Part shown: one piece after another, positions 2,239 to 53,046 of the stretch
How the letters are laid out: each line of letters starts with the position of its first letter
Numbering within the stretch: position 1 is the first letter of the stretch
Source: Candidatus Thorarchaeota archaeon
GTDB taxonomy: Archaea; Asgardarchaeota; Thorarchaeia; Thorarchaeales; Thorarchaeaceae
NCBI GenBank assembly: GCA_018238375.1
Contig: JABCTJ010000008.1
Location: 5 to 64,004, forward strand
Direction of reading: 5' to 3'
DNA length: 64,000 bases
Notes under the pieces: model-generated
Seen by the model: the letters and a program-made list of their open reading frames with translations, nothing else
Told to the model about the DNA's origin: nothing
Databases searched by the model: none
Position numbers and translations under genes: made by a program

Positions 2239-3519
2239 ATGACAGACACCTCTAATGAAGCTGAATACAAAACTGAGGATATTGTGAATCTTGAAGCTTT
2301 CTTTGATGCCCACACAATGTCGGTTCATCTCGTTGAAAACAATCCACCCAGAGCTAAACGTGGTGAACCAGGTAATTGGGATCTTGTTGAGCTGTCCGAT
2401 CGGCTTCTTACATGTGAGGAACTGGAAATTCTGGCAGAGGCGATAATGGAAAGCGCAAGATACGATAAAGCCTCATTCATAGAGATAGAGGAGCATGGGG
2501 CTGCTGTGGTTCAGCTTAGAAATCTAAGAATCGCGATTGCCATGCCCCCATTCTCCGACAAGATGGAAATCTCTGCAATTCGTCCCATTACTAAACTGAA
2601 TATTGAGGACTACAAGCTTAGCCCGAAACTAATGAAGCGACTCGAAACTCGAGCTGAGGGTATCTTGGTTTCCGGATCACCAGGCTCAGGAAAAAGCACT
2701 TTCGCTGCAGCTCTTGCGGAGTTCTATAGTAGGAAAGGTAACGTTGTTAAAACACTTGAACAGCCCCGAGACCTTCAGGTTTCAGAGGACATTGTGCAGT
2801 ATTCCCCCCTGGATGGCAGTATGGAAAAGGCTGCAGACATCTTATTGCTTGTGCGCCCAGACTACGTAATTTACGATGAACTCAGAAAAACAGCTGACTT
2901 TCGGGCCTATTCAGACCTCAGGTCAGCGGGCGTAGGCATGGTGGGAGTAGTACATGCTGGTTCGGCCATTGACGCAGTTCAGCGTCTTATCTTGGGTGGG
3001 CGAGTCGAACTTGGCCAGCTGCCCAGCACAGTTGATACTGTCCTTCATATTGAAGCAGGTCGCGTTGCCAAAGTTTCCTCGCTCGCTCTCAAAGTGAAAC
3101 TCCCTACAGGCATGGGCGGCAGTCAGAGAGATTTGGCAAGACCGGTTATAGAAATCAGGGATTTTGAGGTGGGGGTTCTTGAGCATGAAATCTTCTCGTT
3201 TGGAGGTGAGAAGATTATAGTACCTGTGAGGGGTGGAATGCGGCCTGAGGGCAGGCAACGCGGTAGGGGTCCTAGGCGAGGCGCCCCAGGGCAGTCAGTG
3301 CCTGTCAGTGTGAGTTATTCCAAGAAGAAAGTCACAATTACTGCGGGTCGGAAGTTCGCAAAAATGAGGATAGAGGTCTTTGCTGATGATCACTACCTTC
3401 TAACAACGGTCATTGGTCGTAATGGTGAGAGTTCTATCCGAATCAAGACTAGGCAGGGTGGTACGCTGGTTGATGCACTCGAAGGGAATTTGGTAATTAC
3501 TGCGAAAATTGCGGAATAG
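2239..3519 (+). CDS. PilT-family ATPase of the archaeal COG1855 type
   Basis: 426 aa. It has Walker A GILVSGSPGSGKSTFAAALAEFY, TLEQPRDLQV, LLLVRPDYVIYDELR and GVGMVGVVHAGSAIDAVQR, matching the conserved archaeal PilT-like ATPase core as I recall it. Confidence 0.65.
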   Translation: MTDTSNEAEYKTEDIVNLEAFFDAHTMSVHLVENNPPRAKRGEPGNWDLVELSDRLLTCEELEILAEAIMESARYDKASFIEIEEHGAAVVQLRNLRIAIAMPPFSDKMEISAIRPITKLNIEDYKLSPKLMKRLETRAEGILVSGSPGSGKSTFAAALAEFYSRKGNVVKTLEQPRDLQVSEDIVQYSPLDGSMEKAADILLLVRPDYVIYDELRKTADFRAYSDLRSAGVGMVGVVHAGSAIDAVQRLILGGRVELGQLPSTVDTVLHIEAGRVAKVSSLALKVKLPTGMGGSQRDLARPVIEIRDFEVGVLEHEIFSFGGEKIIVPVRGGMRPEGRQRGRGPRRGAPGQSVPVSVSYSKKKVTITAGRKFAKMRIEVFADDHYLLTTVIGRNGESSIRIKTRQGGTLVDALEGNLVITAKIAE

Positions 3520-40231: not shown

Positions 40232-43200
40232 CTAAATCAGCATTTCTGCAATCGCGTCGTCCATCGTCTTCATGGTTAAATTCGCTGGAACTATAGCACT
40301 ATCATCAAGATATTCAGCTGCTGTTAGGAGACAGATCACTTGAGTTGACCCACAAATCCGGCATGCCAAATCACTATGAAGATTAAGAAGTGTGTTAAGC
40401 TGTTGCTGAGTCGGAAATACAACATAGGATTTCTTACCAACGCAGAAATCGTAGTATTCATGGCCCAGAGAAACAGGCCCATTCTGCTTCCCAATCTCTC
40501 CAATTAGCAGATTGATTGCTCTTTCCTTGAGATTTCCCAGTACTGCTGAATTTACAATCCAGAGGTCTTTTTCAAAATCGGTGTATCGCTTCTTACCCCC
40601 CACACGCAATGCCACAAGTACTTCGTCAGCAAGGAGTTCTGTGAGAGCACGTTTGCCTTCCTCGACACTCATGGGAGCTGATCTCCCTTTGAGCGACTGC
40701 AATGCGGTAGTTTCGATGAATTCTAGAAGGGCATCCCACGCAACATGTCCATCCGACAGACCAACGAAATCTTCGATTAGACCAAACCAGAGGCGCATTT
40801 GGACTGCACGACTCGTAGCTGAACCGACTTCATGCACAGCTCCCCTCAAATCAATTTTTTCTGATTCGGAGAAGCTAACAACTGCACTTGGCTGCTCTTC
40901 AACTATTTCGTTTCGATGGGACCTTCCGTGGACAAGTTCATCCACCACATTGTTTATTGAGCTGGGAAATGCTGAGATTACAGTCACATCATCAAATGCC
41001 TCCGACCGGTTAATGAGTTCTCTTAGCTTAGCTGCGGCGATGCTTCCTCTCACCACTACCACCAATTTGTTGATGTTATTCCCGAGCTCACTCATACATG
41101 CTCCAATCCGTTCCAGAACCAATTCAATGGAAGATGCTTTCAGATGGTTTGGCAAGATGAGTATAGCATGATTGCCCACAATCAACTGTGCCCCATTTGA
41201 TTCTAGCTTCTGATATTCAAAGTTATGAACTGAGTTCAAACGTTGAATTATGTAGTCCATAATAACGTCCTTAACAGCTTCTAATTCTCTGCCTGGCAGT
41301 GTAAATACGAAACCTCCGGGGACAAGTGAAAGTGCTTCGCGTGCAATAGTTCCCAGAGATACAAAGTCCCGGATTATCTCAGCAATATCGTTTTCAGCAA
41401 ATTGTGAATCCAGAGTCATCAATATGCTCCTTATCTCAATTTCAGTGGCCATATCTCTGGATGCAAGAAAGGCAACCACATGGTTCGCCAGCTCACCCAA
41501 CCGATCAAACACTACACACTCGGGTTCAGTAATAGTGCGCGTTTCGTGTATGACTGCACCATTTCCAGTTTTCTCACAGTCTTGAGTAACCGTTTCTTTA
41601 ACATCTTGTCCTGAGGTTTCAGACATGGGTCCAAACAGCTTGGTTGCAATCTCGAAAGTACTAGAACTCGGAATATGAATGAGGGCTCTGCCACACTTCA
41701 GTGACTTAAGATATTCCTCTTGTTCAGCATTGAGGGCCATATACCGCGCCCCAACTGAGCTGTCGTAAGGCAGACGAAATGTAATCTTGGTTGCAGTATT
41801 GGCCAAAATATTCGAGGAGATGTTTGGCCTTGTTGACACAACAATGACTCCTTGTCCAGTGGCCCTTTGAAGCATAACCATTGACTCGCCAGTGGTGACA
41901 TCTGCTGCAGAATGCCTTGTATAGCTTTCAGGCACCAAATTACTTGCTTCTTCAAGAACCACTACGTGATGCAGTCCAGGCTTTATTCCTCGCCTCATCG
42001 CACTATCGAATATTCTCTTGGCAACAAGATTGTAGAGGATCCGGACAGCATCCATTCCTCCTACCCGTGCAACGTGGCGCATGTCGAATACCACACGCTT
42101 GTTCAACAGAGTAGAAATCTTGAGTGCTTTTGCTCCCCCCTTTAGTATGGATCCGAGGGGCTCACGTGACAATATTTCAAGACGGTTTAGAAGCGCATCC
42201 CTAGTCATGTTTCCAAAGCGATCATTACCAGTCAGTTTCGAGATAATCTGGTTGAGGGCCTGGACTGACTTTGTTTTACGTTTTAATTTCGCTAACTCCA
42301 CCACTGATTCTCGTAAGAGCTTCTCCATGGCAGGCGAAAGTTCAGATGACAGACCTCTTTCATTTATGAGCTCCCTTAGAATCGTAAACGTTGCATGTGC
42401 ATCTATCTCACCTGAATCCGTTTCAGTGTCTAACAAATCCATCACGAAGGAGGCATCTTCTCCCGGACTGAGTATGAGAATGCTGGAATCCCATCCTGCA
42501 AGGTCCGCATATTCAGATCCCTTAATATCAAATATCCACCAAGGAACGTTAGTCTTCAAGCTCAGTTCAAGCATCAATTTTTTCACAAGATTTGTCTTGC
42601 CCGTGCCAGTGGCACCAAGAACTGCAACATGTTCTCTTAGCCACTCCGGTTTAATCCCGATATCACTAATGCGTCGCCCCCCATAGATTGTCTTTCCAAT
42701 AATCAGATCATTTTCTATCAGCTCTCTCAGCGGAACTGGAAAGACTGGAGCCATGGTCACTGCAATTACAGGAAGCTGTTGTACAGGGGTGTTCACGTAA
42801 CCCACTAAGGAACTTACATGGATTTTTTGACGTTTGAGATGTCGTCTAGTGAGAAGTCTACATGCAGTTCTACCTCGAATTCTTCCTTTCTTCAGGGAGA
42901 TGTTTTCCTCCCCACCCCAAATCGAGGCGACAAGACCGTTTACACCATTCGTTACCCTTTCAAGTTCAGCAGCATCTCTTGCTTTAGCATGAACATATAC
43001 AGAGTTGTAAAACCAGCCTGAATCACCTTGTATTCTCTCATGTTGGTCTAAAAGCTTCCTCTTGGTGGCATGATCAGCCAAGGATTCCTCATTCCTCAAC
43101 TCCTTTGCGCGAATGTTTTTCCATTCTCCTTCCATTCTCCTCCTCTCTCTGCCTGCTTTTGCACTTGAGAATACACACGTAAGCGTGACAGAATATCCCT

Positions 43201-43963
43201 GTTTGATTGCAGTAGAGATGAATGTACCAACCTGTGATGCATCAATCGAAGGCGCCACTCGGGGGATTCCCGAAACAAATGTGAGTGACTGATGCATCCC
43301 GTCACCATGAGCCAATGCTGAGGGTTCTTTCAACGAGTCTATGTGATGTACTATTTCAACTGCCCCCCTCAGCTTATCTTCTCCTAGCTGATGCACTTCA
43401 ACCCCGTTTAAAGAAGCTAGAAGAATAGCTTCTGTTCGTGTGGCTTCTCGCCTCAGAATTTCTTTCATCTCAGCTAGATTCTTTCCAGATACTGTAATGA
43501 ATAACCGCAGGAATGGTTCCCCTCTCTCCACTCCCACCTCATATGCTATGGAAACTCTACTATCCAATCCTGCACGTAGTGCCAAAAGCATGGCTGTATT
43601 ATACCTAGGCTTTTTGCCCGGATCAACAACAATCGAGCTTGGCACAGAAGCAAGTTCCAGAACGCAAGTCACAATAACATGCCCATCCAGCTGAATAACA
43701 AGAAATTGCTCATCGATAAAAACCGACAATTTATCATTGCGAATTCTCTCACTGGTTAACAACCCACCTGACAGTACTGGTAGTGCACAAACAACAATCT
43801 CGACAGTCAGTTTTAGAGGCACAGGTGGCTGTTGGATAAGACCAACAAGAGGTAACAAGTACACGAATGTCATGTAGAGGCCGCAAACAATCGTTCCACC
43901 TATCCACATTGCTCTGACCAAAGCCCATGGTCCTAGATACGTGCGACTGGATACCAGTATCAC
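40232..43963 (-). CDS. Membrane-anchored HerA/VirB4/FtsK-superfamily ATPase with a large uncharacterised C-terminal extension (1243 aa)
   Basis: Three N-terminal hydrophobic helices, then Walker A HVAVLGATGTGKTNLVKKLM at about residue 450 and Walker B HHVVVLEEASNLVP. About 460 further residues have no recognised motif. Confidence 0.65.
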   Translation of the reverse strand: MILVSSRTYLGPWALVRAMWIGGTIVCGLYMTFVYLLPLVGLIQQPPVPLKLTVEIVVCALPVLSGGLLTSERIRNDKLSVFIDEQFLVIQLDGHVIVTCVLELASVPSSIVVDPGKKPRYNTAMLLALRAGLDSRVSIAYEVGVERGEPFLRLFITVSGKNLAEMKEILRREATRTEAILLASLNGVEVHQLGEDKLRGAVEIVHHIDSLKEPSALAHGDGMHQSLTFVSGIPRVAPSIDASQVGTFISTAIKQGYSVTLTCVFSSAKAGRERRRMEGEWKNIRAKELRNEESLADHATKRKLLDQHERIQGDSGWFYNSVYVHAKARDAAELERVTNGVNGLVASIWGGEENISLKKGRIRGRTACRLLTRRHLKRQKIHVSSLVGYVNTPVQQLPVIAVTMAPVFPVPLRELIENDLIIGKTIYGGRRISDIGIKPEWLREHVAVLGATGTGKTNLVKKLMLELSLKTNVPWWIFDIKGSEYADLAGWDSSILILSPGEDASFVMDLLDTETDSGEIDAHATFTILRELINERGLSSELSPAMEKLLRESVVELAKLKRKTKSVQALNQIISKLTGNDRFGNMTRDALLNRLEILSREPLGSILKGGAKALKISTLLNKRVVFDMRHVARVGGMDAVRILYNLVAKRIFDSAMRRGIKPGLHHVVVLEEASNLVPESYTRHSAADVTTGESMVMLQRATGQGVIVVSTRPNISSNILANTATKITFRLPYDSSVGARYMALNAEQEEYLKSLKCGRALIHIPSSSTFEIATKLFGPMSETSGQDVKETVTQDCEKTGNGAVIHETRTITEPECVVFDRLGELANHVVAFLASRDMATEIEIRSILMTLDSQFAENDIAEIIRDFVSLGTIAREALSLVPGGFVFTLPGRELEAVKDVIMDYIIQRLNSVHNFEYQKLESNGAQLIVGNHAILILPNHLKASSIELVLERIGACMSELGNNINKLVVVVRGSIAAAKLRELINRSEAFDDVTVISAFPSSINNVVDELVHGRSHRNEIVEEQPSAVVSFSESEKIDLRGAVHEVGSATSRAVQMRLWFGLIEDFVGLSDGHVAWDALLEFIETTALQSLKGRSAPMSVEEGKRALTELLADEVLVALRVGGKKRYTDFEKDLWIVNSAVLGNLKERAINLLIGEIGKQNGPVSLGHEYYDFCVGKKSYVVFPTQQQLNTLLNLHSDLACRICGSTQVICLLTAAEYLDDSAIVPANLTMKTMDDAIAEMLI

Positions 43964-44011
43964 TTTCTCATCTCTCTTCGTTATATTCTAGGCCGTGTGT
44001 TAGGGTGGATT

Positions 44012-44028
44012 TCATCCATTGTGGATGA
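44012..44028. promoter_or_regulatory. Perfect inverted repeat TCATCCA-TTG-TGGATGA in a divergent promoter region
   Basis: Read directly from the sequence. It is nested in a longer imperfect palindrome (GTGTT...AACAC) between the ATPase gene and the surface-protein gene. Confidence 0.5.
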
Positions 44029-44182
44029 CAACACCCAATTTCTTTAGCATAGATATACGACCAGTTCATGGTTTCAGATTTCTCCATAAGAACTCCCCTC
44101 AGTTATCCTACAATCTGGCTCACTGAGAAACAACACAGAAACGGTAGGAGGTTAATAGCCCCAGTTCACGATTCACATTAGA

Positions 44183-46234
44183 GTGATTCAGACATGCTGC
44201 TTCGTGCTAGATCAAGAAAAACACAGGCAAATGGAACTCAAAACACAAATTGAGGAGGAATCTATCTTGAGAAACAGTGCAGTTCCCTTGCTGATTGTTC
44301 TGGCTGCCATTTTTCTTCTATTCGCATGCAGCATGCCTACCGTTTCCGCTGAAGGCGAAGTTGTTGTTTCCAGAGGGGAAACCATAACCATTACTGCTCA
44401 GTTGCTGCAAAATGGAACCTATGGCGATCCAGTTGTCCACCAGAGGATAGAATTCTTTGACCAGACCCACGATTCGTTTCTTGGTTCCAACATGACCGAT
44501 TCAAATGGCTTTGCACACATCGATTGGCTTCTCCCCTTCGGACATCCATTGGGTTTCATGATGATTAACGCAACTTTTCGCGGCAATCAATCGCTGTCAC
44601 TCTCGCCTTCTTGCCAGTGGATGCCGCTTACAGTTGTTTCATCGACAACAATGGAGATTCAAGTCGAGGACAGTGACTTGGCACCAGGCGACAATCTATC
44701 TCTCATAGTCCGCCTGCTTGACGATATGAACGAACCACTTTCAAGTGCCTTTCTTATGATAATCAGTGATTCCTTATTACTTGACTCTGGCATTACCAAT
44801 GACACCGGCTATGTTAGTTTCTCCTTACACTGCAACACTTCTTGGGCACAGCTGGGTGCGAATACTATTACTGTCATCTATGAACGGAACTTGGTACTTT
44901 TTCAAGAAGGCGCAGAGTCATCCTTTTCCGTGACAATAGAGCAGATTGCAACCCTTATTGAACACGATAACGCATTATCTGATACTGTTACCTTGAATGA
45001 CTCGATTGCTCTATCCATCACGCTTTGGGCCAGCGACGAAACATTGCCAAGTTTCCCCATGATGGTATCGCTTGATGGCACAACGCAGTCCTCAATAACG
45101 ACCAACGGGTCGGGCATAGCAACTTTTGATTTACAAATTGATGAGGCAATCTCTCTGAACAATCACACACTAACAATTGAATACATGGGAACTGACCGGT
45201 ACAGCACTTCAATTCTCCAAATTCACTTTGTTGTCACAAGCCCTGCACTGATGGAAGTACTCTTGCCAGAGTACATTATCACGGGGGCTGAAATTGAAAT
45301 CTCAGTTATGGTGCACGACATTCTAAATCGATCGATTCTCAATGCATCCATTACAATTCTCGATACACTAACTGAAGAAGCAGTTACAAAACCCATGACT
45401 GGTAGCAACAACCCAACACTGCTTCTTCTACCTATAACAGGATCTAGAGGAAACAGAGAGTTCATTGTAATTGTCAATGAGGCACCATGCATCACAAACG
45501 GAACTCTCCGATTCAGTGAAGCAGTATGGTTCCGTCCTACATTGTCACTGAATCAGAGCAACATTATGGGATTTGCATCCCCCCGACAGGAGATATTACT
45601 TACAGTTCATCTTATCAACGATAATACCAACTACTCCAACAAACTAATGGAAGTCTACTCGATTGATAATACTCTCGTCGCACAGTCGATGACCAATCAG
45701 GACGGCACCGCAACCATGGCTTTCATGGCACCTTCCAGTGAAGGCCACTTTGCTTTTCTAATAACATGCAGCGGAAATGAGTCAGCGTACGAACTGTCAG
45801 TTATCCTAGAGTATAGTTTCACTGTAGCTAAAATGATACCAGTCATAATTACTTTAGAGTACTATGAGATAGTACCAGAGCTTAAGGCGATACACGTTCA
45901 GCTTGCTATTCAAGCGCTGAATGGGTCTCTACTGAGAAGCATTCCAATAAGTTACGTATGGCTCTCAGCTCATATGGAAATAGGCAGCAGTAACGATGGT
46001 TTCATCAATCTGCAGCTAATGATTCCATTTGCATCGGGTAGCTATCTTCTATCGTACGAATCGGAAGCGTCGGATTCCCTTCAGTCATACGCAGGATCAG
46101 CTGTAATTGTGATTGAAGATGCCGATATTTTGGCAGCTCAAGGCGTCGGAATAATTGGTCTAGCTATTGGTTTTTGCCTGTCAATTGGCCTAGTTAGCAT
46201 TCCATTAATCAGGCGTCGGCATATGTTAGCTTGA
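44183..46234 (+). CDS. Large secreted, C-terminally membrane-anchored surface protein rich in N-glycosylation sequons
   Basis: A Sec-type signal (LLIVLAAIFLLFACSMPTVSA-EG), many N-x-S/T sites (NGT, NMT, NAT, NQS, NLS, NDT, NTS...) and a C-terminal TM plus basic tail (GIIGLAIGFCLSIGLVSIPLIRRRH). The probable true start is Met17 (44231). Confidence 0.65.
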   Translation: MIQTCCFVLDQEKHRQMELKTQIEEESILRNSAVPLLIVLAAIFLLFACSMPTVSAEGEVVVSRGETITITAQLLQNGTYGDPVVHQRIEFFDQTHDSFLGSNMTDSNGFAHIDWLLPFGHPLGFMMINATFRGNQSLSLSPSCQWMPLTVVSSTTMEIQVEDSDLAPGDNLSLIVRLLDDMNEPLSSAFLMIISDSLLLDSGITNDTGYVSFSLHCNTSWAQLGANTITVIYERNLVLFQEGAESSFSVTIEQIATLIEHDNALSDTVTLNDSIALSITLWASDETLPSFPMMVSLDGTTQSSITTNGSGIATFDLQIDEAISLNNHTLTIEYMGTDRYSTSILQIHFVVTSPALMEVLLPEYIITGAEIEISVMVHDILNRSILNASITILDTLTEEAVTKPMTGSNNPTLLLLPITGSRGNREFIVIVNEAPCITNGTLRFSEAVWFRPTLSLNQSNIMGFASPRQEILLTVHLINDNTNYSNKLMEVYSIDNTLVAQSMTNQDGTATMAFMAPSSEGHFAFLITCSGNESAYELSVILEYSFTVAKMIPVIITLEYYEIVPELKAIHVQLAIQALNGSLLRSIPISYVWLSAHMEIGSSNDGFINLQLMIPFASGSYLLSYESEASDSLQSYAGSAVIVIEDADILAAQGVGIIGLAIGFCLSIGLVSIPLIRRRHMLA

Positions 46235-46244
46235 GAGAAATAGG

Positions 46245-46322
46245 TGGTGCTCCGGCCGGGATTTGAACCCGGGTCGGGGGATCGAGAGTCCCCTATGCTG
46301 GGCCGGACTACACTACCGGAGC
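46245..46322 (-). tRNA. tRNA-Glu (anticodon CTC), CCA encoded
   Basis: The minus strand reads GCTCCGG-TA-GTGT..-GGGGA-CTCTCGA-TCCCC-..-CCGGG-TTCAAAT-CCCGG-CCGGAGC-A-CCA. Confidence 0.9.
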
Positions 46323-46485
46323 CATCCTAGTCGAGTCCGAAGCGCGAAACCTCTCCAACTATAAATAAGGCTTTCCCACGAACTGAAGCATTTTCATTCT
46401 GAAATACAATTCTTGCTGTGTATCTGATGCGGGCTGAAACAGATCGCGTAGCTCCATGGAAGCGGTGCAGTTAGACAAGTGAAAT

Positions 46486-46692
46486 TTACGGGACCAGCCC
46501 AGTAAAATCACTCCAGCTATTCTCCAAAAGCTGAAGAAGGTTGGTGACTACATCTTGAGCCCAACCAGTGGCTTGCAGGATTACTGCAATTACTATAGAA
46601 ACAGTAACTACTGCTATACCTAGTAGTAAGCTCTCTTCTACTAATGGACCCGCGTGATTATCATGAAGGAGATCAGCATTATCAACCATCAA
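46486..46692 (-). CDS. Minimal type-IV-pilin-like (Flp/class-III-signal-peptide-like) protein
   Basis: 68 aa. ..NHAG-PLVEESLLLGIAVVTVSIVIAVIL gives a Gly at -1, Glu at +4/+5 and a hydrophobic helix of about 20 aa. It lies directly downstream of a secretion-type ATPase. Confidence 0.5.
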   Translation of the reverse strand: MMVDNADLLHDNHAGPLVEESLLLGIAVVTVSIVIAVILQATGWAQDVVTNLLQLLENSWSDFTGLVP

Positions 46693-46780
46693 CTAACACC
46701 TAGCTACTAACCTCTCTGAGTGCTATTTTAACTCCTTCAAGAACTCACATCTACTGAAGATTATCCTACCCTAGATGAAT

Positions 46781-48490
46781 CTAAATCATATCGTGCTCAA
46801 CGCACCACAATTCTTCGACCAATGAGGTTACTGAGTCAATAGCAGCTTCCTCAAGCGCGAATATGAGGCCTTCTGTCGCTTTCTCGAACACCTGGGTATA
46901 ATCCTTACAACTAACAATCTGTGCACGTAGTCTGAATGCCCCGTCCTTGACCCACCTTCCGACCTCAGCTCCTGGATTTCGCAAATCAAAGACCTTGTTA
47001 AGTCCCACAAAGACCACGCCGCGATGGTCAATATCTCTTCTTACTTCAACAATTTCCCTCACATGACGTCTAGACTGTCCAGGCACTGGTCTGTCAAGTG
47101 TAACTATGACATCCATCAAAGCAATGCTAGATGAATCAACTTGGTGTCCTATTGTCCAACGAGACATAAGACTTGCTGCAGAGTCGCTGTGACACGTCTG
47201 AATTGTACGAAGTCCTGCTGCCACCGCTTGAAACAACGCCTGGCTGTGTTCAGCTGTCTGAATCTCACCTAGAATCAGATAATCAGGGGATCGATGCAAG
47301 CTCTTCACTATCTCAATGCTCTTGTCAGATTGTCTACTTCTCTCGTCCACTGGATCAACTTTTATCCTGACCTGATGGTGCCCTTCAATCAACCTACTCT
47401 CAATAGCATCCTCGATGTAGATTTTTCTCCAAGTGATTGGTGTAACCATATCCAATGCATTCAACAAAGTAGTCTTACCAGAACCTGGTCCTCCAGTGAT
47501 AGTGATGTTGAAACGTCCAGCTATGGCAACAAGTAGTGTTGCTGCTGCGTTAACTGTCAATGTACCAATACGTATCAAATCCAAGATTGTGAATGGACTA
47601 GATCGGGCTCTTCGAATTTCAAGGTGCAGACCGTCTGGACTTAATGGTGGCACACATGCAGAAAAACGAAGATTCGTGCCGGCTATTCTCATGTCGGTTT
47701 TTAATGAAGGATTTGCTCGGTCTAGATGTAAATTACTCTCTGCTCGCATCAGTGTAACAAGGCGTGACACCATCTTATCGGTCAGAATGAAATTTGAATG
47801 ACATCGCCCAAATCTCTGATGATCAAAATATAGCGCTGCTTCTGGCCTGTCCAGAAAGACTTCTTCAACTTCATCGTCCAGCAACAATGAGAAGAACAAT
47901 CCCAATACAGTCATTCTATGAGCAACAACATCTGAAATCCTCCCTTTGGTTGATTCACTTATTTCAGGAAGTGACTCGGCGATGCTTGATGAAACTTGGG
48001 ATGACGCGGCACTGACTCTCTCAGAAATACTAACTCTAAAATCCAAATGGCTGTTTGTAAGATACCTAGTCTTGTTAGATAATTCATCTAGAAGAGCAAG
48101 TTCAAGAGATGTTCTAACTAATGGATATGACCTATACATAATCTGATTCTTTCCTTGCAGAAAGAACACAGCTAGATATGGCCCAACTATGTAGGCGTCA
48201 ACGACATTTTGAAGACTTGGTTCATTTTCGCCTATGTAGATAGACTCCCAGCCTTCAGCATGCCAAGGGGGTTCCAGTGAGAGCCCTACGTTGTGTCCTC
48301 CAAGATGGATAAGCTTCTTTTCAGTTTCTAGAAGAATTGCCCTTGCTTGATGATTTGAGGTACCATGTAGAGATTCAAGCTTAGCACATATTGGAGCCGA
48401 AAAGTAGCGACAGCCGCTGCATCGCGTACTAGGACATTCTACAACGAGTACATCACGACTAGTCATCAAAAGACACATCCTACAACTCAT
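46781..48490 (-). CDS. Type II/IV secretion-system ATPase (TadA/CpaF/VirB11/FlaI family)
   Basis: 569 aa. DDEVEEVFLDRP...YFDH, Walker A ITGGPGSGKTTLLNAL, IYIEDAIE, RSPDYLILGEIQTAEH and TCHSDSA. The N-terminus is Cys-rich. Confidence 0.8.
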   Translation of the reverse strand: MSCRMCLLMTSRDVLVVECPSTRCSGCRYFSAPICAKLESLHGTSNHQARAILLETEKKLIHLGGHNVGLSLEPPWHAEGWESIYIGENEPSLQNVVDAYIVGPYLAVFFLQGKNQIMYRSYPLVRTSLELALLDELSNKTRYLTNSHLDFRVSISERVSAASSQVSSSIAESLPEISESTKGRISDVVAHRMTVLGLFFSLLLDDEVEEVFLDRPEAALYFDHQRFGRCHSNFILTDKMVSRLVTLMRAESNLHLDRANPSLKTDMRIAGTNLRFSACVPPLSPDGLHLEIRRARSSPFTILDLIRIGTLTVNAAATLLVAIAGRFNITITGGPGSGKTTLLNALDMVTPITWRKIYIEDAIESRLIEGHHQVRIKVDPVDERSRQSDKSIEIVKSLHRSPDYLILGEIQTAEHSQALFQAVAAGLRTIQTCHSDSAASLMSRWTIGHQVDSSSIALMDVIVTLDRPVPGQSRRHVREIVEVRRDIDHRGVVFVGLNKVFDLRNPGAEVGRWVKDGAFRLRAQIVSCKDYTQVFEKATEGLIFALEEAAIDSVTSLVEELWCVEHDMI

Positions 48491-48643
48491 CAGCCGAATA
48501 GTATCTTCTTTGTTGGAGATTTAAGCACCCAGCCGAGATGACATCTGCCCTTACTCAGCGTCACTAATCCATTCACTAATATCACCGTTTGCCGCCGATA
48601 GCACACTACTCAACAGGGTTAGTTCAAATTCACGCTGACGTTT

Positions 48644-49702
48644 CTAGGCTGTTTTTTCTATAGGTTGAATGAGCTTCTTCATCATACCAAAGTGATCACG
48701 AATACTGTATTCAGCAACCTGTGTTGCTATCGACGCAAGCTTCTGAGTCAATACCGCCCGTTTACCATATTCATTGGCAATTAACCGATCGCCAGCGTAG
48801 GCTGCTGATACGGTAAAGATGAATGGATTCCGCCCCCCACGTTTCGATGCAGGAATCGCCTCAAGAACTTCAAAGATTCTATCTCTAAGGGCACTCTCAT
48901 AGGCCTTCGAGTCCCATCCACGAAGCTTCACCTTACCTATGACTCTCTGATTATTCATTAACATTGACAGAACTCTGGGCACATAGTCCCTTGGCTTGCG
49001 AATCTGAGGAGCATATCCTATCATCGACTTGAGTCTAAGTGCTTCTCTGACAATTGATCTTACGCTCACTCTATGTCCACATTTCTCGAAAACATCAGCA
49101 ATCTCTTCAAGTGTTATCGGTGCGCCATCTTTGAATTCCCTCACTGCCATCAAGAGGCATACTGCCATAAGCAGAATGTTGTTAGTCACTTTAGGAGATT
49201 CCGAAACCACCTTCTTGTATAGGTATGCAGTGCGATCGCGCACTTGCTCATTCAGCATCAACAGCTTTGACACATGATTCAGTGTTCTAAGAGCACGATA
49301 CTTCGCCTCACTCGTTCCAATTCGCACTTGAGTACTGTATCTACTCTTCAGGCGCTTGAACCTTTTCTGGCTTGCTGCAGATAGTGAACGGCCATTTACA
49401 TCGCGAAAATACCAGTCCTTGTGAAACCCTATGTAACTACCAAGCCCATCAACAATATGCATCCTATTACCGAGAGAAACGTACATGGTTGCATCAGGAG
49501 CATCACCACGCTTAGGCTCCCCCATCTGATATGTGGGATTGACATACTTTCTCGAGATTGCAATGCCGCATTCAGAACATACTATGTATCCTTGACTGTG
49601 TAGCAATCGCCCACGACAATCAGGACAAGACCAAGACATCAAACTCGATGATTCAATCATTCTACCAGTCAATAACCACACCCGTATCGAATCAAACATC
49701 AA
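48644..49702 (-). CDS. tfb: TFIIB/TFB-family transcription initiation factor, divergent paralog
   Basis: An N-terminal zinc ribbon (CPDCRG..x..CSECG) and two cyclin-like repeats (LNEQVRDRTAYLYKKV..., LLMAVCLLMAVREF..APITLEEIADVF). The start is uncertain among several N-terminal Mets. Confidence 0.7.
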   Translation of the reverse strand: MMFDSIRVWLLTGRMIESSSLMSWSCPDCRGRLLHSQGYIVCSECGIAISRKYVNPTYQMGEPKRGDAPDATMYVSLGNRMHIVDGLGSYIGFHKDWYFRDVNGRSLSAASQKRFKRLKSRYSTQVRIGTSEAKYRALRTLNHVSKLLMLNEQVRDRTAYLYKKVVSESPKVTNNILLMAVCLLMAVREFKDGAPITLEEIADVFEKCGHRVSVRSIVREALRLKSMIGYAPQIRKPRDYVPRVLSMLMNNQRVIGKVKLRGWDSKAYESALRDRIFEVLEAIPASKRGGRNPFIFTVSAAYAGDRLIANEYGKRAVLTQKLASIATQVAEYSIRDHFGMMKKLIQPIEKTA

Positions 49703-49904
49703 CTCATAACTGCGTTTCAGGGGGGTTCAATACGTTCACAGGAACTATTCATTTACTCGAATGGACTTGCATAGAGGCAGAGTAGTTACTGATGGCCTCC
49801 TCAGAATGAGAGTTCACCGAAACTATTCAGCGCTGTCACTTCCACCTGCTAGAAATTTCCTGACGAGGGACTTGAAAGCCCCATTTCGTTACAGTACCAG
49901 ATCG

Positions 49905-50270
49905 TTATGAGAGCATCAAATAGAATTTGTCAGCAGCAAACATTTTCTTCTTCGCTGGCGTTGGGTTGGCAATGGTAAGGACAACCCTCAAACCGCCTAT
50001 CGCTCCCACCATCTCTAAGTCACCATTCCCTCCAATCTTGAAGATATCGCCCTCTGCATAGAGCTTGCTCTTGTCCCCACTCGCAATTGGTTTGGAATCG
50101 ACAACTACCACGATGCCATCACGCACATTCATTTTGTCACAAAGTGCTTCTGGAAGTTCCAATGTCAATTTGGCTCCTTCAGCCTTGGAAGCAATTCTCA
50201 GAAGCTTCAATCTTTTTATTTCTGTGTCTTCAATTGCATCGATTGTAGCATTCCTTAACCTGATGACCAT
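49905..50270 (-). CDS. RNA polymerase subunit Rpo8 (Rpb8/RpoG-like)
   Basis: 121 aa. The C-terminal half (YAEGDIFKIGG..LEMVGAIGGLRVVLTI......DKFYLMLS) parallels the eukaryotic Rpb8 C-terminus (..YGxxYK...SFGGLLMRLxG......YLLIRR) from memory. Confidence 0.55.
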   Translation of the reverse strand: MVIRLRNATIDAIEDTEIKRLKLLRIASKAEGAKLTLELPEALCDKMNVRDGIVVVVDSKPIASGDKSKLYAEGDIFKIGGNGDLEMVGAIGGLRVVLTIANPTPAKKKMFAADKFYLMLS

Positions 50271-50391
50271 CGCTTACTGCACTCCGTGTTCCTTCAGTGT
50301 AGCACTGCTGCTGAGCGGTCTTGAATTAAACCTGTCGCTATATCAAGTGCTGTTTTTTAGGCAACATAATGACTGATGTTTGGTGTGATGA

Positions 50392-53046
50392 TTGAATCGA
50401 AACGCACTGGTAATAGTTGCAATCGCAGTGTTCATCACCTTTGGTCTGATATCGCCAGTTAGCGCCTTTTACTTCGAGTTTGATTACTTCGAAACCGATA
50501 TGCTAACATACGAGGTTGGCGAAGCTATTCACATGGTGGCTAAGATCACTGCTGATTTCGGCGAGGATGGATGGTGCTACGTTTCTTTCGCAATAGTTAC
50601 AGACTTAGGGCCAGTCTTTGATGACGACTATTTCATACCGCCATCACCTGACACTAGAATTCTTCTCTCCTCATACATAATCCAGCCTGAGCATACGTTC
50701 CCAGGCGTCAATGGGACTAGTGGCTTTGTAATTTTTAATATCGAAGCCTTCGATGGCTATTCCCAAGGAGCCAGTGAAATCATAGAGATTAACATAACTA
50801 GGGGGCCACTAACAGCATATGCGCTGGAACCACTATCTGTCCCCTATGGCACAGACAAGAGCTTCGATCTTGGGATTGTGAGCGCACATAACAGCAACAT
50901 AACTCTCTCGAATAGTCCAGTTTCCATAGATATCTATAACGCGGATAGCGAATTAGTTGTGCACTCAAATGACACGACAGACAATAACGGTGTAGTCACA
51001 GTGAACTGGAACTCATCGTTAGGACCACCTGGGGACTACAATCTCACTGTTTCGTGTAATGGCACCGATTCATTCCATCCACTTTCAGAATCTCTCACAC
51101 TCACTGTTCAACTCCCAGAATCTAGCCTGATTGTTGCTTCGTATTCTGACTCAGTACACTGTCAGTCACACGATGGGAGCCATGTTGACTTGGCTGATTT
51201 GCGTGTGAAACATCTTAATCATCTCTCAGAGCCGATAAATGATAGTATGGTTAGATGGAATACTGAATTTGCAAACGGAAATATAACTAGCCTAGGAAAC
51301 GGTACATACAGTTCCACAATTGCTTTTGCAGTAGATCCTGGTTTCTATCGGGTAAATGTAACTGCAACTAACCCCTCGTATCAAGTAGCTCCAACTTCTG
51401 TATTGATTGCCGCCATCCAACGAGATGTGATTGTCAATGTCGAGAGTGCACAGCCTGCCATATGTGGACAGTCAATTACCATTGAAATTATCGTGACAGA
51501 CCAGGCAGTCAATACTACAATCAGCGCGATTCCACTATCTGTTAGTCTTACAATCGGAAACAGCACAGAAATCATAACCCAAGGGGCGACTAATGAATCC
51601 GGTTGCTTCAGGCATTCCTTCCTGATTCCAGAAACAAGCTGGGGCATAGGAATAATCTCAGTTCAAACAAATGAAACAACTCACTACGTCCAGATGAACT
51701 ACCAGGAACCACTAATTGTTTCATTCATCCCAGAGGTAACCCATGAAATATTGTTTCCTTCCGTTCTTGGCTATGAAGCTGCACTATTACTACATCTGAC
51801 AGACCCACTGGATGCTGACGTTGGAAGCATTTCTGTCGAACTACTCAATTCTTCGGGCTATGTATTGGCAACCGGTACGAGCGATATGATTGGTCTGATT
51901 CTGCTGCAATGGCACACGACTTCAGGAACACAAGTAGGACTAGCGAACTATTCATTAGTCATTCTTGACGAGCCTTCGAAGCATGTCTGTGAAACAACAC
52001 AGCTCCTTGAATTCATGACGTACTATCCTCTTACATTCTCTTCTGTCCATACAACATGGAACGCTGTGCGTGGTCAAACTGCAACTGTCAATTTCTTGAT
52101 AGAGTCCGAATGGGCTTTCCAACAGACCATTGGGATATCTCTTCTAGATGGCGAACACCATCTCTCCACAACTGAAATCATCCTAACTGATACGATTGTG
52201 AACATCACATTTACAATGGATCACAATGTGATTCTCGGTATACATACAATTACTGTAAGCATCAATGACACAAAATGCATCGCGATAGGGCCTTTTGATT
52301 TCGAACTATTTGTCTATGGAAGCATGGATGCAGATATCGTGGTTATGGAGGCATTCTATGGAGAAACCATCACCATGAGTCTAGATGTCCATGACGACAA
52401 TGGCAGCATCCCAAATTCGATTAATGTCAGTGTTTTTGTGGATCATATTGTAGATCCGTTCTTCGTATGGATGAATCTAAGTCCGAGCCTACTTGATTCG
52501 ATTCCGCTACCTCTTTGGATTAATCCTGGAGTTCACAACATCACATTCAAAGTGAGCAGTCCGTGGCTCGAAACCACTAACAGGTTTCTAGATGTTCACA
52601 TCTGGATGCGAACGAATCTGACACTCACAATATCAGTGGACGATTGCAGACAGGGCGACCAATCGAGTGTAGAATCGCTTGGTATTCAGACTGAAGCCAT
52701 CGCAGCAGCTATCTCATCAGGCTCAATCATAAGTCCGCCCCCAATCTTGTTGAGAGATACTACACCGACGGATTCGCCAACTGCACGCAATACTTCTCCT
52801 GCCAATTGCCCCAAGTTGAGCTCCGGCACGAGCAATCGCTCCACAGTATGGGCAAACTCCCTAATCTTCTTGTCTGGGAACGGCCAAAGAGTACGCAATC
52901 TTAGAGATCTTATTGAGCTTGCAGTGGTGTCAGTGGTCATGACTTCATCAACTGACCTAGAAGTACAGCCAAATGAAACAACACCCCATTCAGCTTCTGA
53001 GGGGCCAACAACAACAACATCATCTAAGAAATCGCGATTCTCCTGA
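50392..53046 (+). CDS. Large secreted sequon-rich surface protein; the last ~120 codons overlap korA antisense and may not be genuine
   Basis: TTG start. A Sec signal (ALVIVAIAVFITFGLISPVSA-F), repeated beta-rich segments and many N-x-S/T sites. No C-terminal anchor. Confidence 0.6.
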   Translation: MNRNALVIVAIAVFITFGLISPVSAFYFEFDYFETDMLTYEVGEAIHMVAKITADFGEDGWCYVSFAIVTDLGPVFDDDYFIPPSPDTRILLSSYIIQPEHTFPGVNGTSGFVIFNIEAFDGYSQGASEIIEINITRGPLTAYALEPLSVPYGTDKSFDLGIVSAHNSNITLSNSPVSIDIYNADSELVVHSNDTTDNNGVVTVNWNSSLGPPGDYNLTVSCNGTDSFHPLSESLTLTVQLPESSLIVASYSDSVHCQSHDGSHVDLADLRVKHLNHLSEPINDSMVRWNTEFANGNITSLGNGTYSSTIAFAVDPGFYRVNVTATNPSYQVAPTSVLIAAIQRDVIVNVESAQPAICGQSITIEIIVTDQAVNTTISAIPLSVSLTIGNSTEIITQGATNESGCFRHSFLIPETSWGIGIISVQTNETTHYVQMNYQEPLIVSFIPEVTHEILFPSVLGYEAALLLHLTDPLDADVGSISVELLNSSGYVLATGTSDMIGLILLQWHTTSGTQVGLANYSLVILDEPSKHVCETTQLLEFMTYYPLTFSSVHTTWNAVRGQTATVNFLIESEWAFQQTIGISLLDGEHHLSTTEIILTDTIVNITFTMDHNVILGIHTITVSINDTKCIAIGPFDFELFVYGSMDADIVVMEAFYGETITMSLDVHDDNGSIPNSINVSVFVDHIVDPFFVWMNLSPSLLDSIPLPLWINPGVHNITFKVSSPWLETTNRFLDVHIWMRTNLTLTISVDDCRQGDQSSVESLGIQTEAIAAAISSGSIISPPPILLRDTTPTDSPTARNTSPANCPKLSSGTSNRSTVWANSLIFLSGNGQRVRNLRDLIELAVVSVVMTSSTDLEVQPNETTPHSASEGPTTTTSSKKSRFS

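Follow-up and report, generated by a model that had tools for sequence, protein, structure and literature searches.

What machine is encoded where a pilin gene and two translocation-type ATPase genes stand together with neither a platform protein nor a prepilin peptidase beside them? The question is raised by positions 40232-53046 of a stretch of 64,000 nucleotides (nt), hereafter the window, on contig JABCTJ010000008.1 of a metagenome-assembled genome (MAG) from a Thorarchaeota (Asgard) archaeon (GCA_018238375.1; 2.5 Mb in 282 contigs, 92.6% complete); the taxon agrees with the names borne by close homologs in public sources. An earlier note on this DNA had described an accessory-looking surface or secretion cluster, perhaps a non-canonical pilus, adhesion or DNA-transfer apparatus in which the larger ATPase might substitute for, or cooperate with, the absent parts. 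Every open reading frame in that description, and the tRNA-Glu(ctc) gene, proved real and correctly placed, and the family labels given to the window genes agree with our family scans. The reading we favor, at a probability of roughly one half and from sequence comparison, is that these genes would specify a filament machine of the Flp type that is coupled to a CedD-like translocase and may serve DNA exchange, its platform and peptidase being supplied from elsewhere in the genome.

By its hallmarks, among them a predicted cleavage site, the protein of 68 amino acids (aa) encoded at 46486-46692 (minus strand) is a Flp-like type IV prepilin with a class III signal. It comprises a variable charged leader, the predicted cleavage site (..A↓GPLVEE, arrow), a Glu at +5 and a 22-aa hydrophobic helix, and its mature N-terminus, GPLVEESLLLG(I/L)AVVTVSIVIAVILQATGWAQ, is almost invariant across 12 genera. 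No Pfam or NCBIfam model matched the protein; homologs that carry (R/K)G↓SPLVEEGLLLG, 61-86 aa long in other Asgard families, come after the platform genes in operons of Odin, other Asgard and Thermoproteota genomes. The pilin gene lies 88 bp downstream of that for a 569-aa assembly ATPase of the GspE/TadA/VirB11 type (46781-48490, minus strand), the sole secretion-type ATPase of the genome, which scored 76.4 bits on PF00437 (T2SSE) and 102.8 bits on TIGR03819. Its best PDB match was 2OAP, the GspE of A. fulgidus (E 8.6e-28), with CpaF at 4e-18, and an N-terminal motif, CPxxRCxxCx6-9C, is conserved across the sequences of its own family of Thorarchaeota (the Thor family). PF27713 is annotated on nearly all homologs of this ATPase. 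A second T2SSE match, at 2239-3519 of the window (plus strand), was rejected as a PINA Holliday-junction ATPase (PRK13764, 528 bits) and not a secretion protein; this branch-migration ATPase, the only other T2SSE-like protein of the genome, adjoins a tRNA-Arg gene.

The earlier note was correct that no platform or peptidase accompanies these genes, as a family scan of the window returned neither a T2SSF platform nor an A24 peptidase, but canonical single-copy genes for both lie elsewhere, on contigs C21 and C234. The note had itself named such genes among the findings that would refute its proposal, and a genome-wide search recovered them. ATPase orthologs of other Asgard families have directly after them either a pair of polytopic proteins (~280 and ~240 aa) or a 482-aa fusion, with the pilin next. 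These operon-encoded TadB and TadC proteins match only one gene in the present genome (C21:3058-4587), TadB-like sequences aligning with the N-terminal half of its product (E ~1e-24) and TadC-like sequences with the C-terminal half (E 2e-7). The product, a fused TadB/C platform of 509 aa with seven transmembrane (TM) segments, matches PF00482 above the cut-off at 38-43 bits and is encoded by the genome's only T2SSF gene; a second T2SSF match, on C56, was a false positive due to a Hef-type helicase/nuclease. Single-copy and present in 22 of the 24 high-quality genomes sampled, the platform gene lies away from the ATPase gene wherever it was found in the family, whereas it is ATPase-adjacent in most other Asgard lineages. 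The A24 peptidase (C234:6068-6592; 174 aa, five TM segments; PF01478, 36.6 bits) retains both Asp motifs, LDVRERKVSN and GGADVK, and is likewise single-copy, with 24 of 25 family genomes encoding it; in other sampled Asgard genomes it is encoded separately too. Judged by sequence, the parts of a type IV filament (T4F) machine are thus all present (assembly ATPase, T2SSF platform, class III pilin and A24 peptidase), and the filament machine is probably completed in trans. The fused platform gene is always followed, both in the Thor family and in a sister-family genome (G025), by a gene for a conserved six-TM protein of 224 aa without a family match (C21:4633-5307), which may be an unrecognised component of the machine. 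Homologs of this partner, of a 458-aa C21 protein and of the peptidase were sought in the operons of other lineages, and none was found.

On the strand of the pilin and ATPase genes, the window carries, in order, genes for the polymerase subunit Rpo8 (Rpb8; 121 aa, 49905-50270), a divergent paralog of transcription factor B (TFB/TFIIB; 352 aa, 48644-49702) and the assembly ATPase. The TFB paralog scored 55.7 bits on NF001658 (cut-off 384) versus 398-454 bits for the three canonical TFBs encoded on C105, C118 and C136, and is therefore a divergent fourth TFB; its Zn ribbon is intact, with four Cys invariant in the family, and both cyclin repeats can be aligned. Its association with the ATPase extends well beyond Thorarchaeota. 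Among 71 Asgard genomes drawn across the phylum, 66 possess the TFB paralog and 69 the ATPase, mostly as single copies. The two genes lie at most 4 kb apart in 45 of the 71, representing 13 families, and 4-12 kb apart in a further 10, while in 9 they fall on different contigs. Because orientation and intervening genes vary among these loci, the pattern points to selection on linkage rather than simple inheritance of an operon. A 134-aa N-anchored protein encoded on C255 of the present genome is a homolog of the gene that stands between TFB and ATPase in other lineages.

An alignment search of public genomes with the pilin and ATPase also returned Thermoproteota, namely Thermoprotei MAGs, Methanomethylicia and one Nitrososphaerota MAG. 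The order there is LSm (on the opposite strand), sometimes Rpo8, the TFB paralog, small N-anchored proteins, the ATPase, a TadB-like and a TadC-like protein and the Flp-like pilin. We surveyed linkage in 20 further Thor loci, 36 non-Thor Asgard loci and 24 TACK loci, and in 20 of the last the TFB paralog is adjacent. The earlier view that the genes of this cluster belong together thus holds for the TFB paralog, ATPase and pilin, neighbors across Asgard and TACK archaea and joined by Rpo8 in some lineages, but not for the second large surface protein (surf884, below) or the tRNA. Two contigs with the module (L135 and L191) come from MAGs labelled Bacillaceae bacterium and Gammaproteobacteria bacterium, probably through binning errors. 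For TACK or Asgard archaea, we found no paper in the literature available to us connecting a Flp-like pilin with a TFB paralog and a CedD-like ATPase.

The second, giant ATPase (40232-43963, minus strand) is a membrane-anchored, CedD-like member of the HerA/VirB4 superfamily. Its 1243 residues have TM segments at the N-terminus, continue with an ATPase core at about residues 400-780 and end in a C-terminal extension of 469 aa. The central domain matches PF01935 (DUF87/HerA) at 58.6 bits, and the top NCBIfam match is the CedD model NF053655 (E 9.8e-12), on which it scored 44.3 bits against a cut-off of 600. The architecture matches the CedD type, TM segments followed by an NTD (N-terminal domain), then by a HerA/VirB4-like ATPase domain, with a model score far below the cut-off.

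Such ATPases are linked to pilus genes in TACK archaea, where a 600-640-aa membrane-anchored HerA-type ATPase directly follows the pilin on the same strand in 13 of the 24 loci; these 13 span several lineages and include the complete genome of Ca. Methanosuratincola petrocarbonis. Two of the pilin-adjacent ATPases, the only two tested, scored 203 and 254 bits on NF053655. When four TACK CedD-like ATPases were searched against the present genome, the giant ATPase was the best match for three (E 1e-16 to 3e-20), ahead of other HerA paralogs. With a CedD-like homolog right after the pilin in 13 Thermoproteota loci, cooperation of the giant ATPase with pilus genes, one of the two roles envisaged in the earlier note, gains comparative support; nothing points to the other, replacement of the platform. 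In 17 of the 20 further Thor loci, the giant ATPase gene lies 2.3-2.7 kb after the pilin gene on the same strand, with the gene for a secreted protein (surf683) between them, and in one more it is inverted. On these sequence comparisons, functional coupling to the giant ATPase appears to be an even bet, and DNA as the cargo, suggested by analogy, is plausible if somewhat doubtful.

Several observations weigh against a coupled machine. The giant ATPase performs weakly on the very model that relates it to CedD (44 bits versus 600). No HerA-like gene was found within 7 kb of the module in any of the 36 non-Thor Asgard loci, and in Odin-type genomes, which have the pilus operon, a homolog of the giant ATPase was not found at all; the pilus part and the giant ATPase can therefore exist apart. 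Within the Thor family, linkage is indistinguishable from general synteny. The sister-family genome G025 (96% complete; L038, L050, L213-L215) keeps a platform-like gene with its 224-aa partner, as well as the giant ATPase and surf683, but neither a TadA-type ATPase nor an A24 peptidase was detected in it, so the platform may have another role or that genome may be losing the system. A CedA/VirB6-like channel, a CedB/VirB4 ATPase and a CedA1/TedC VirB2-like pilin were all absent from the window, the whole genome not having been searched for CedA; as against these Ced/Ted parts, the small protein of the window has the hallmarks of a type IV pilin and the polytopic partner belongs to the T2SSF type. 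For the C-terminal extension of the giant ATPase (residues 775-1243, window 40232-41641; model pLDDT 73), the model suggests two winged helix-turn-helix (wHTH)-like units and two alpha/beta domains, with conserved cysteines at C1174, C1201, C1204 and C1211, and a Foldseek search with it gave no match below E 5e-3, only hints of wHTH and ERCC1/nuclease-like domains; the wHTH assignment is correspondingly weak.

A possible promoter-level connection speaks in favor of coupling. Similar GGGGAGTT/TATA-like boxes precede the pilin and giant ATPase genes: GGAGTTAAAATAG at 46723-46735 (minus strand), ~35 nt upstream of the pilin start, and GGGGAGTTCTTATGG at 44084-44098 (minus strand), ~130 nt upstream of the giant ATPase start, both promoter-like by inference only. 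In most of the 12 genera, the pilin box can be recognised as a G-rich element with TTAAAAT/TTAAAT after it. In ~6 of 11 loci, the box upstream of the giant-ATPase ortholog takes the form GGGG(A/T)GTTCATATG, and other loci show looser variants that are G-rich/TATA-like. The similarity, noticed post hoc, would fit a promoter type shared by the two genes. The motif GGAGTT[ACT]WWAW has 14 sites genome-wide, the other 12 of which do not point to any obvious module gene, and no regulon can be defined from the box for that reason. A separate element, A(G/C)TTTCGG-N5-CTCTTTCTG, stands between the genes for Rpo8 and the TFB paralog at ~49795-49825 (minus strand), ~120 nt upstream of the start of the latter, and is kept in most of 10 Thor-family loci. 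It contains ANTTTC, the DNA-damage-responsive hexamer known from Sulfolobales, and we mention it as a lead only.

The observations against coupling give some substance to the view that independent systems stand side by side by inherited order: an adhesion pilus; a giant ATPase and surf683 with an unrelated function such as protein export, chromosome handling or defence; and a TFB paralog and Rpo8 engaged in housekeeping. The entire 20-kb neighborhood, housekeeping genes included, is syntenic in the family, which makes adjacency there uninformative. Homologs of the giant ATPase are unlinked in all 36 non-Thor Asgard loci and missing from some operon-bearing genomes, and LSm, Rpo8 and ribosomal genes are recurrent neighbors as well. 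In one family genome (G016, locus L034), the block from glmS to surf683 is inverted with a breakpoint between surf683 and the pilin, which sets the giant ATPase/surf683 pair apart from the pilin and assembly ATPase. Locus L193 resembles it, with an inversion breakpoint between pilin and surf683, and together the two inversions mark the giant ATPase/surf683 pair and the pilin-ATPase-TFB-Rpo8 block as separable units. What this view does not readily accommodate is the tight same-strand adjacency of pilin and CedD-like gene in 13 TACK loci from several lineages, in the same order as in Thor genomes, or the persistence of TFB paralog-ATPase linkage in 13 Asgard families and in TACK archaea despite changes in orientation and intervening genes. 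We consider mere juxtaposition of independent systems plausible but rather unlikely.

Less probable still is a repurposed pilus remnant that makes no filament and acts with the TFB paralog and Rpo8 in a transcription-related pathway. The precedent is subclade 4D of Pyrobaculum and Thermoproteus, which consists of an ATPase with a Cys-rich N-terminal domain, a 4-5-TM protein, a TFIIB homolog and RPB8 and is without a pilin (Makarova, Koonin & Albers 2016, PMC4858521). A transcription-related role has been suggested for 4D (PMC4858521), and a 2026 PLoS Genet survey, which does not mention HerA, regards it as a probable remnant (PMC13705601). The window shares with 4D the Cys-rich ATPase, the TFIIB homolog and RPB8, and the near-universal, mostly single-copy ATPase and TFB paralog of Asgard genomes would also suit such a remnant. 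A 4D-like Thermoprotei locus (L173) related to the module has TFB, ATPase and membrane proteins but no pilin. In a search for the 4D genes of Pyrobaculum/Thermoproteus, a single-protein scan with the L173 ATPase returned that protein alone, a word-based protein search gave three close relatives only, and the alignment of the TFB paralog proved too divergent for pattern matching.

Against a remnant stand the near-invariant pilin N-terminus, the T2SSF platform and the dedicated A24 peptidase, all under evident purifying selection. Rpo8 offers little help to it either. Searched against the PDB, the profile of the 121-aa family matched S. pombe Rpb8 (E 1.5e-5) and archaeal Rpo8 (5.5e-4). An AlphaFold2 model (pLDDT 91.9) superimposed on Rpb8/Rpo8 structures with Foldseek TM-scores of 0.78-0.80, and all 50 matches listed were Rpb8/Rpo8. 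As the only copy in the genome, this gene simply encodes the real polymerase subunit. Adjacency of Rpo8 to the module was found in 3 of 24 TACK and 3 of 36 other Asgard loci, counts obtained with a Thor-based profile of limited reach. A remnant devoid of filaments is accordingly improbable in our estimation.

The proposal that the apparatus lacks a platform and a peptidase altogether, the polytopic N-terminus of the giant ATPase standing in for them, draws on the gene content of the window and on the TM helices of that ATPase. A platform orthologous to operon-encoded ones and an A24 gene, both single-copy and encoded elsewhere in nearly all family genomes, indicate that the apparatus is neither platform-less nor peptidase-less, and leave this proposal very little room. 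An integrated mobile or conjugative element at tRNA-Glu, an idea owed to the central tRNA gene and to conjugation-type ATPase families (VirB11-like and VirB4/HerA-like), has next to no probability in view of the missing integrase, att repeat and compositional shift, the conserved arrangement in the Thor-family loci examined and the rarity of the tRNA in relatives.

The region is, with near certainty, vertically inherited core chromosome and not an island. We compared 20-kb stretches around the ATPase ortholog in 12 same-family genomes. Gene order was identical in 11 of the 12 loci, from 10 genera: glmS, uS10, isopentenyl phosphate kinase, giant ATPase, surf683, pilin, ATPase, TFB paralog, Rpo8, surf884, korA and orc1, with two of the stretches stopping short of the orc1 side. 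Housekeeping genes flank the region, namely glmS, uS10 and isopentenyl phosphate kinase at one end and korA and orc1 at the opposite end. GC content in the window is flat at 0.44-0.46, and the family scan found no integrase in the window. With composition even and gene order conserved across the family, the description of the cluster as accessory-looking fails. The tRNA-Glu gene (CTC; 46245-46322, minus strand; ARAGORN) occupies the same spot in 2 of the 12 relatives' loci, one in a same-genus genome and one in another genus, and is absent from the other 10. It is an incidental neighbor and not the integration landmark that had been suggested; the accompanying remark that no att-like repeat is apparent was sound, since we found no direct repeat touching the tRNA gene.

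Both large proteins that had been described as sequon-rich and extracellular carry signal peptides, with 2.5 and 3.1 sequons per 100 aa versus ~0.4 in the two ATPases. The first, surf683 (683 aa; 44183-46234, plus strand), is divergently oriented from the giant ATPase and has a C-terminal TM anchor, 17 sequons and Ig-like repeats (PF16640 Big_3_5, 40.4 bits). It remains paired with the giant ATPase in Thor-family genomes and G025, and is not found in the TACK or other Asgard versions of the module. The second, surf884 (884 aa; 50392-53046, plus strand), has 27 sequons and only sub-threshold Pfam matches to Ig-like families. BLAST found no similarity between the two, and the possibility that they are paralogs was rejected on that basis. 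Linkage of surf884 is limited to family-level synteny, with none detected outside the Thor family, and the protein probably lies outside the module. The 3' 361 nt of its gene (52686-53046; the last ~120 aa) are antisense to the 3' end of korA, and 11 of the 12 loci from relatives (L015-L025, L034) retain this convergent overlap at a length of 355-436 nt. The long antisense frame over korA may encode a genuine overlapping C-terminus, or it may result from the codon usage of korA.

These considerations suggest the following scheme. An old module of TACK and Asgard archaea would have comprised Rpo8, a divergent TFB paralog, the assembly ATPase, a TadB/TadC platform, a Flp-like pilin and a CedD-like ATPase. 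Two changes would then have marked the Thorarchaeota family. The platform came to be encoded by one fused TadB/C gene, relocated to C21, and surf683, the gene for a surface glycoprotein, ended up between the pilin and CedD-like ATPase genes, in some genera along with tRNA-Glu. In operation, the short TadV-like A24 peptidase would cleave the prepilin before GPLVEE, after which a hexamer of the assembly ATPase and the fused platform would draw pilins from the membrane and build them into a pseudopilus or a thin filament of the Flp type. The giant CedD-like ATPase, held in the membrane by its N-terminal helices, would translocate a macromolecule in step with the filament. By analogy with CedD and the Ups pili of Sulfolobales and with ComG/ComFA of bacterial competence, the most likely cargo would be DNA. 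The TFB paralog would serve as the dedicated initiation factor for module promoters. At the cell surface, surf683 may partner the giant ATPase, and surf884 and the tRNA would be bystanders. Our data establish gene identities, orthology, linkage statistics and the location of platform and peptidase in trans, and from them we infer that the two ATPase systems are physically coupled, that the cargo is DNA and what the TFB paralog does. A tentative extension, which we would not yet call likely, is that the window retains the Asgard form of a machine that served the ancestor of TACK and Asgard archaea in cell-to-cell DNA exchange or in uptake, one in which a Flp-type filament and a translocase of the CedD type act as a single apparatus governed by its own TFB paralog.

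Asgard T4F genes have been reported as few and scattered, and subsystem 4D has been dismissed as a remnant. Here, one secretion ATPase and a TFB paralog prove nearly universal in Asgard archaea, and with them come a platform and a Flp-like pilin of high conservation. The module is tied, in Thermoproteota and Thorarchaeota, to a relative of CedD, the DNA-import ATPase of Sulfolobus. If the parts cooperate, they constitute a candidate DNA-exchange or secretion machine in lineages without a known one, and a paralog of a general transcription factor would be dedicated to a surface machine. Were the ancestral reading true, the stand-alone CedD, Ups and TFB3 of Sulfolobales and the pilin-less 4D of Thermoproteales would be derived forms. 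A practical lesson is that 'missing' Asgard platforms and peptidases should be looked for in trans before a non-canonical mechanism is proposed.

Among published systems, the closest kin are subsystem 4D and the Ups/Ced/TFB3 ensemble of Sulfolobales. In the latter, CedD, which consists of TM segments, an NTD and a HerA-like ATPase, is required for DNA import and induced through TFB3 (PMC11868833, PMC11823120). Both combine a type IV pilus, a membrane-anchored ATPase of the HerA/VirB4 superfamily and a TFB paralog. In Sulfolobales, however, the parts occupy separate loci under the control of TFB3, a truncated TFB, and the giant ATPase is a distant relative of CedD (44 bits) with a 469-aa extra tail. 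Gram-positive competence offers a functional analogy, as the ComG pseudopilus, ComEC and ComFA take up DNA with a short type IV filament and a membrane-associated ATPase. ComFA is a DEAD-box helicase to which the translocase considered here is not homologous, and our analysis identified no ComEC-like channel.

The filament genes themselves resemble those of bacterial Tad/Flp and methanogen Epd pili, with which they share a CpaF/TadA-type ATPase, TadB and TadC proteins and a Flp-type pilin that is very small and has Glu at +5 (Denise et al. 2019, PMC6668835). The likeness extends to the peptidase, a short A24 enzyme of the TadV/CpaA kind (PMC6668835). The pilin motif here is G↓(G/S)PLVEE in place of G↓xxxxEY in Tad/Epd, the genes lie scattered, and Tad/Epd systems do not show the linkage to a TFB paralog and a HerA-like ATPase. 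In its transcription-related neighbors, the locus is instead akin to 4D, with a secretion ATPase bearing a small Cys-rich N-terminal domain beside a TFIIB homolog and RPB8/Rpo8. T4F genes are scattered in Asgard genomes, 17 of which have 4D-specific parts (PMC13705601), and a platform and peptidase encoded in trans fit this published scatter. Compared with 4D as described, the present locus contains a Flp-like pilin and has no adjacent membrane protein, and its TFB paralog has two alignable repeats where the 4D TFIIB is a single cyclin domain. In place of the 4-5-TM membrane protein of 4D, the Thorarchaeota genome encodes a seven-TM TadB/C fusion elsewhere and, linked to the pilus genes, a CedD-like ATPase.

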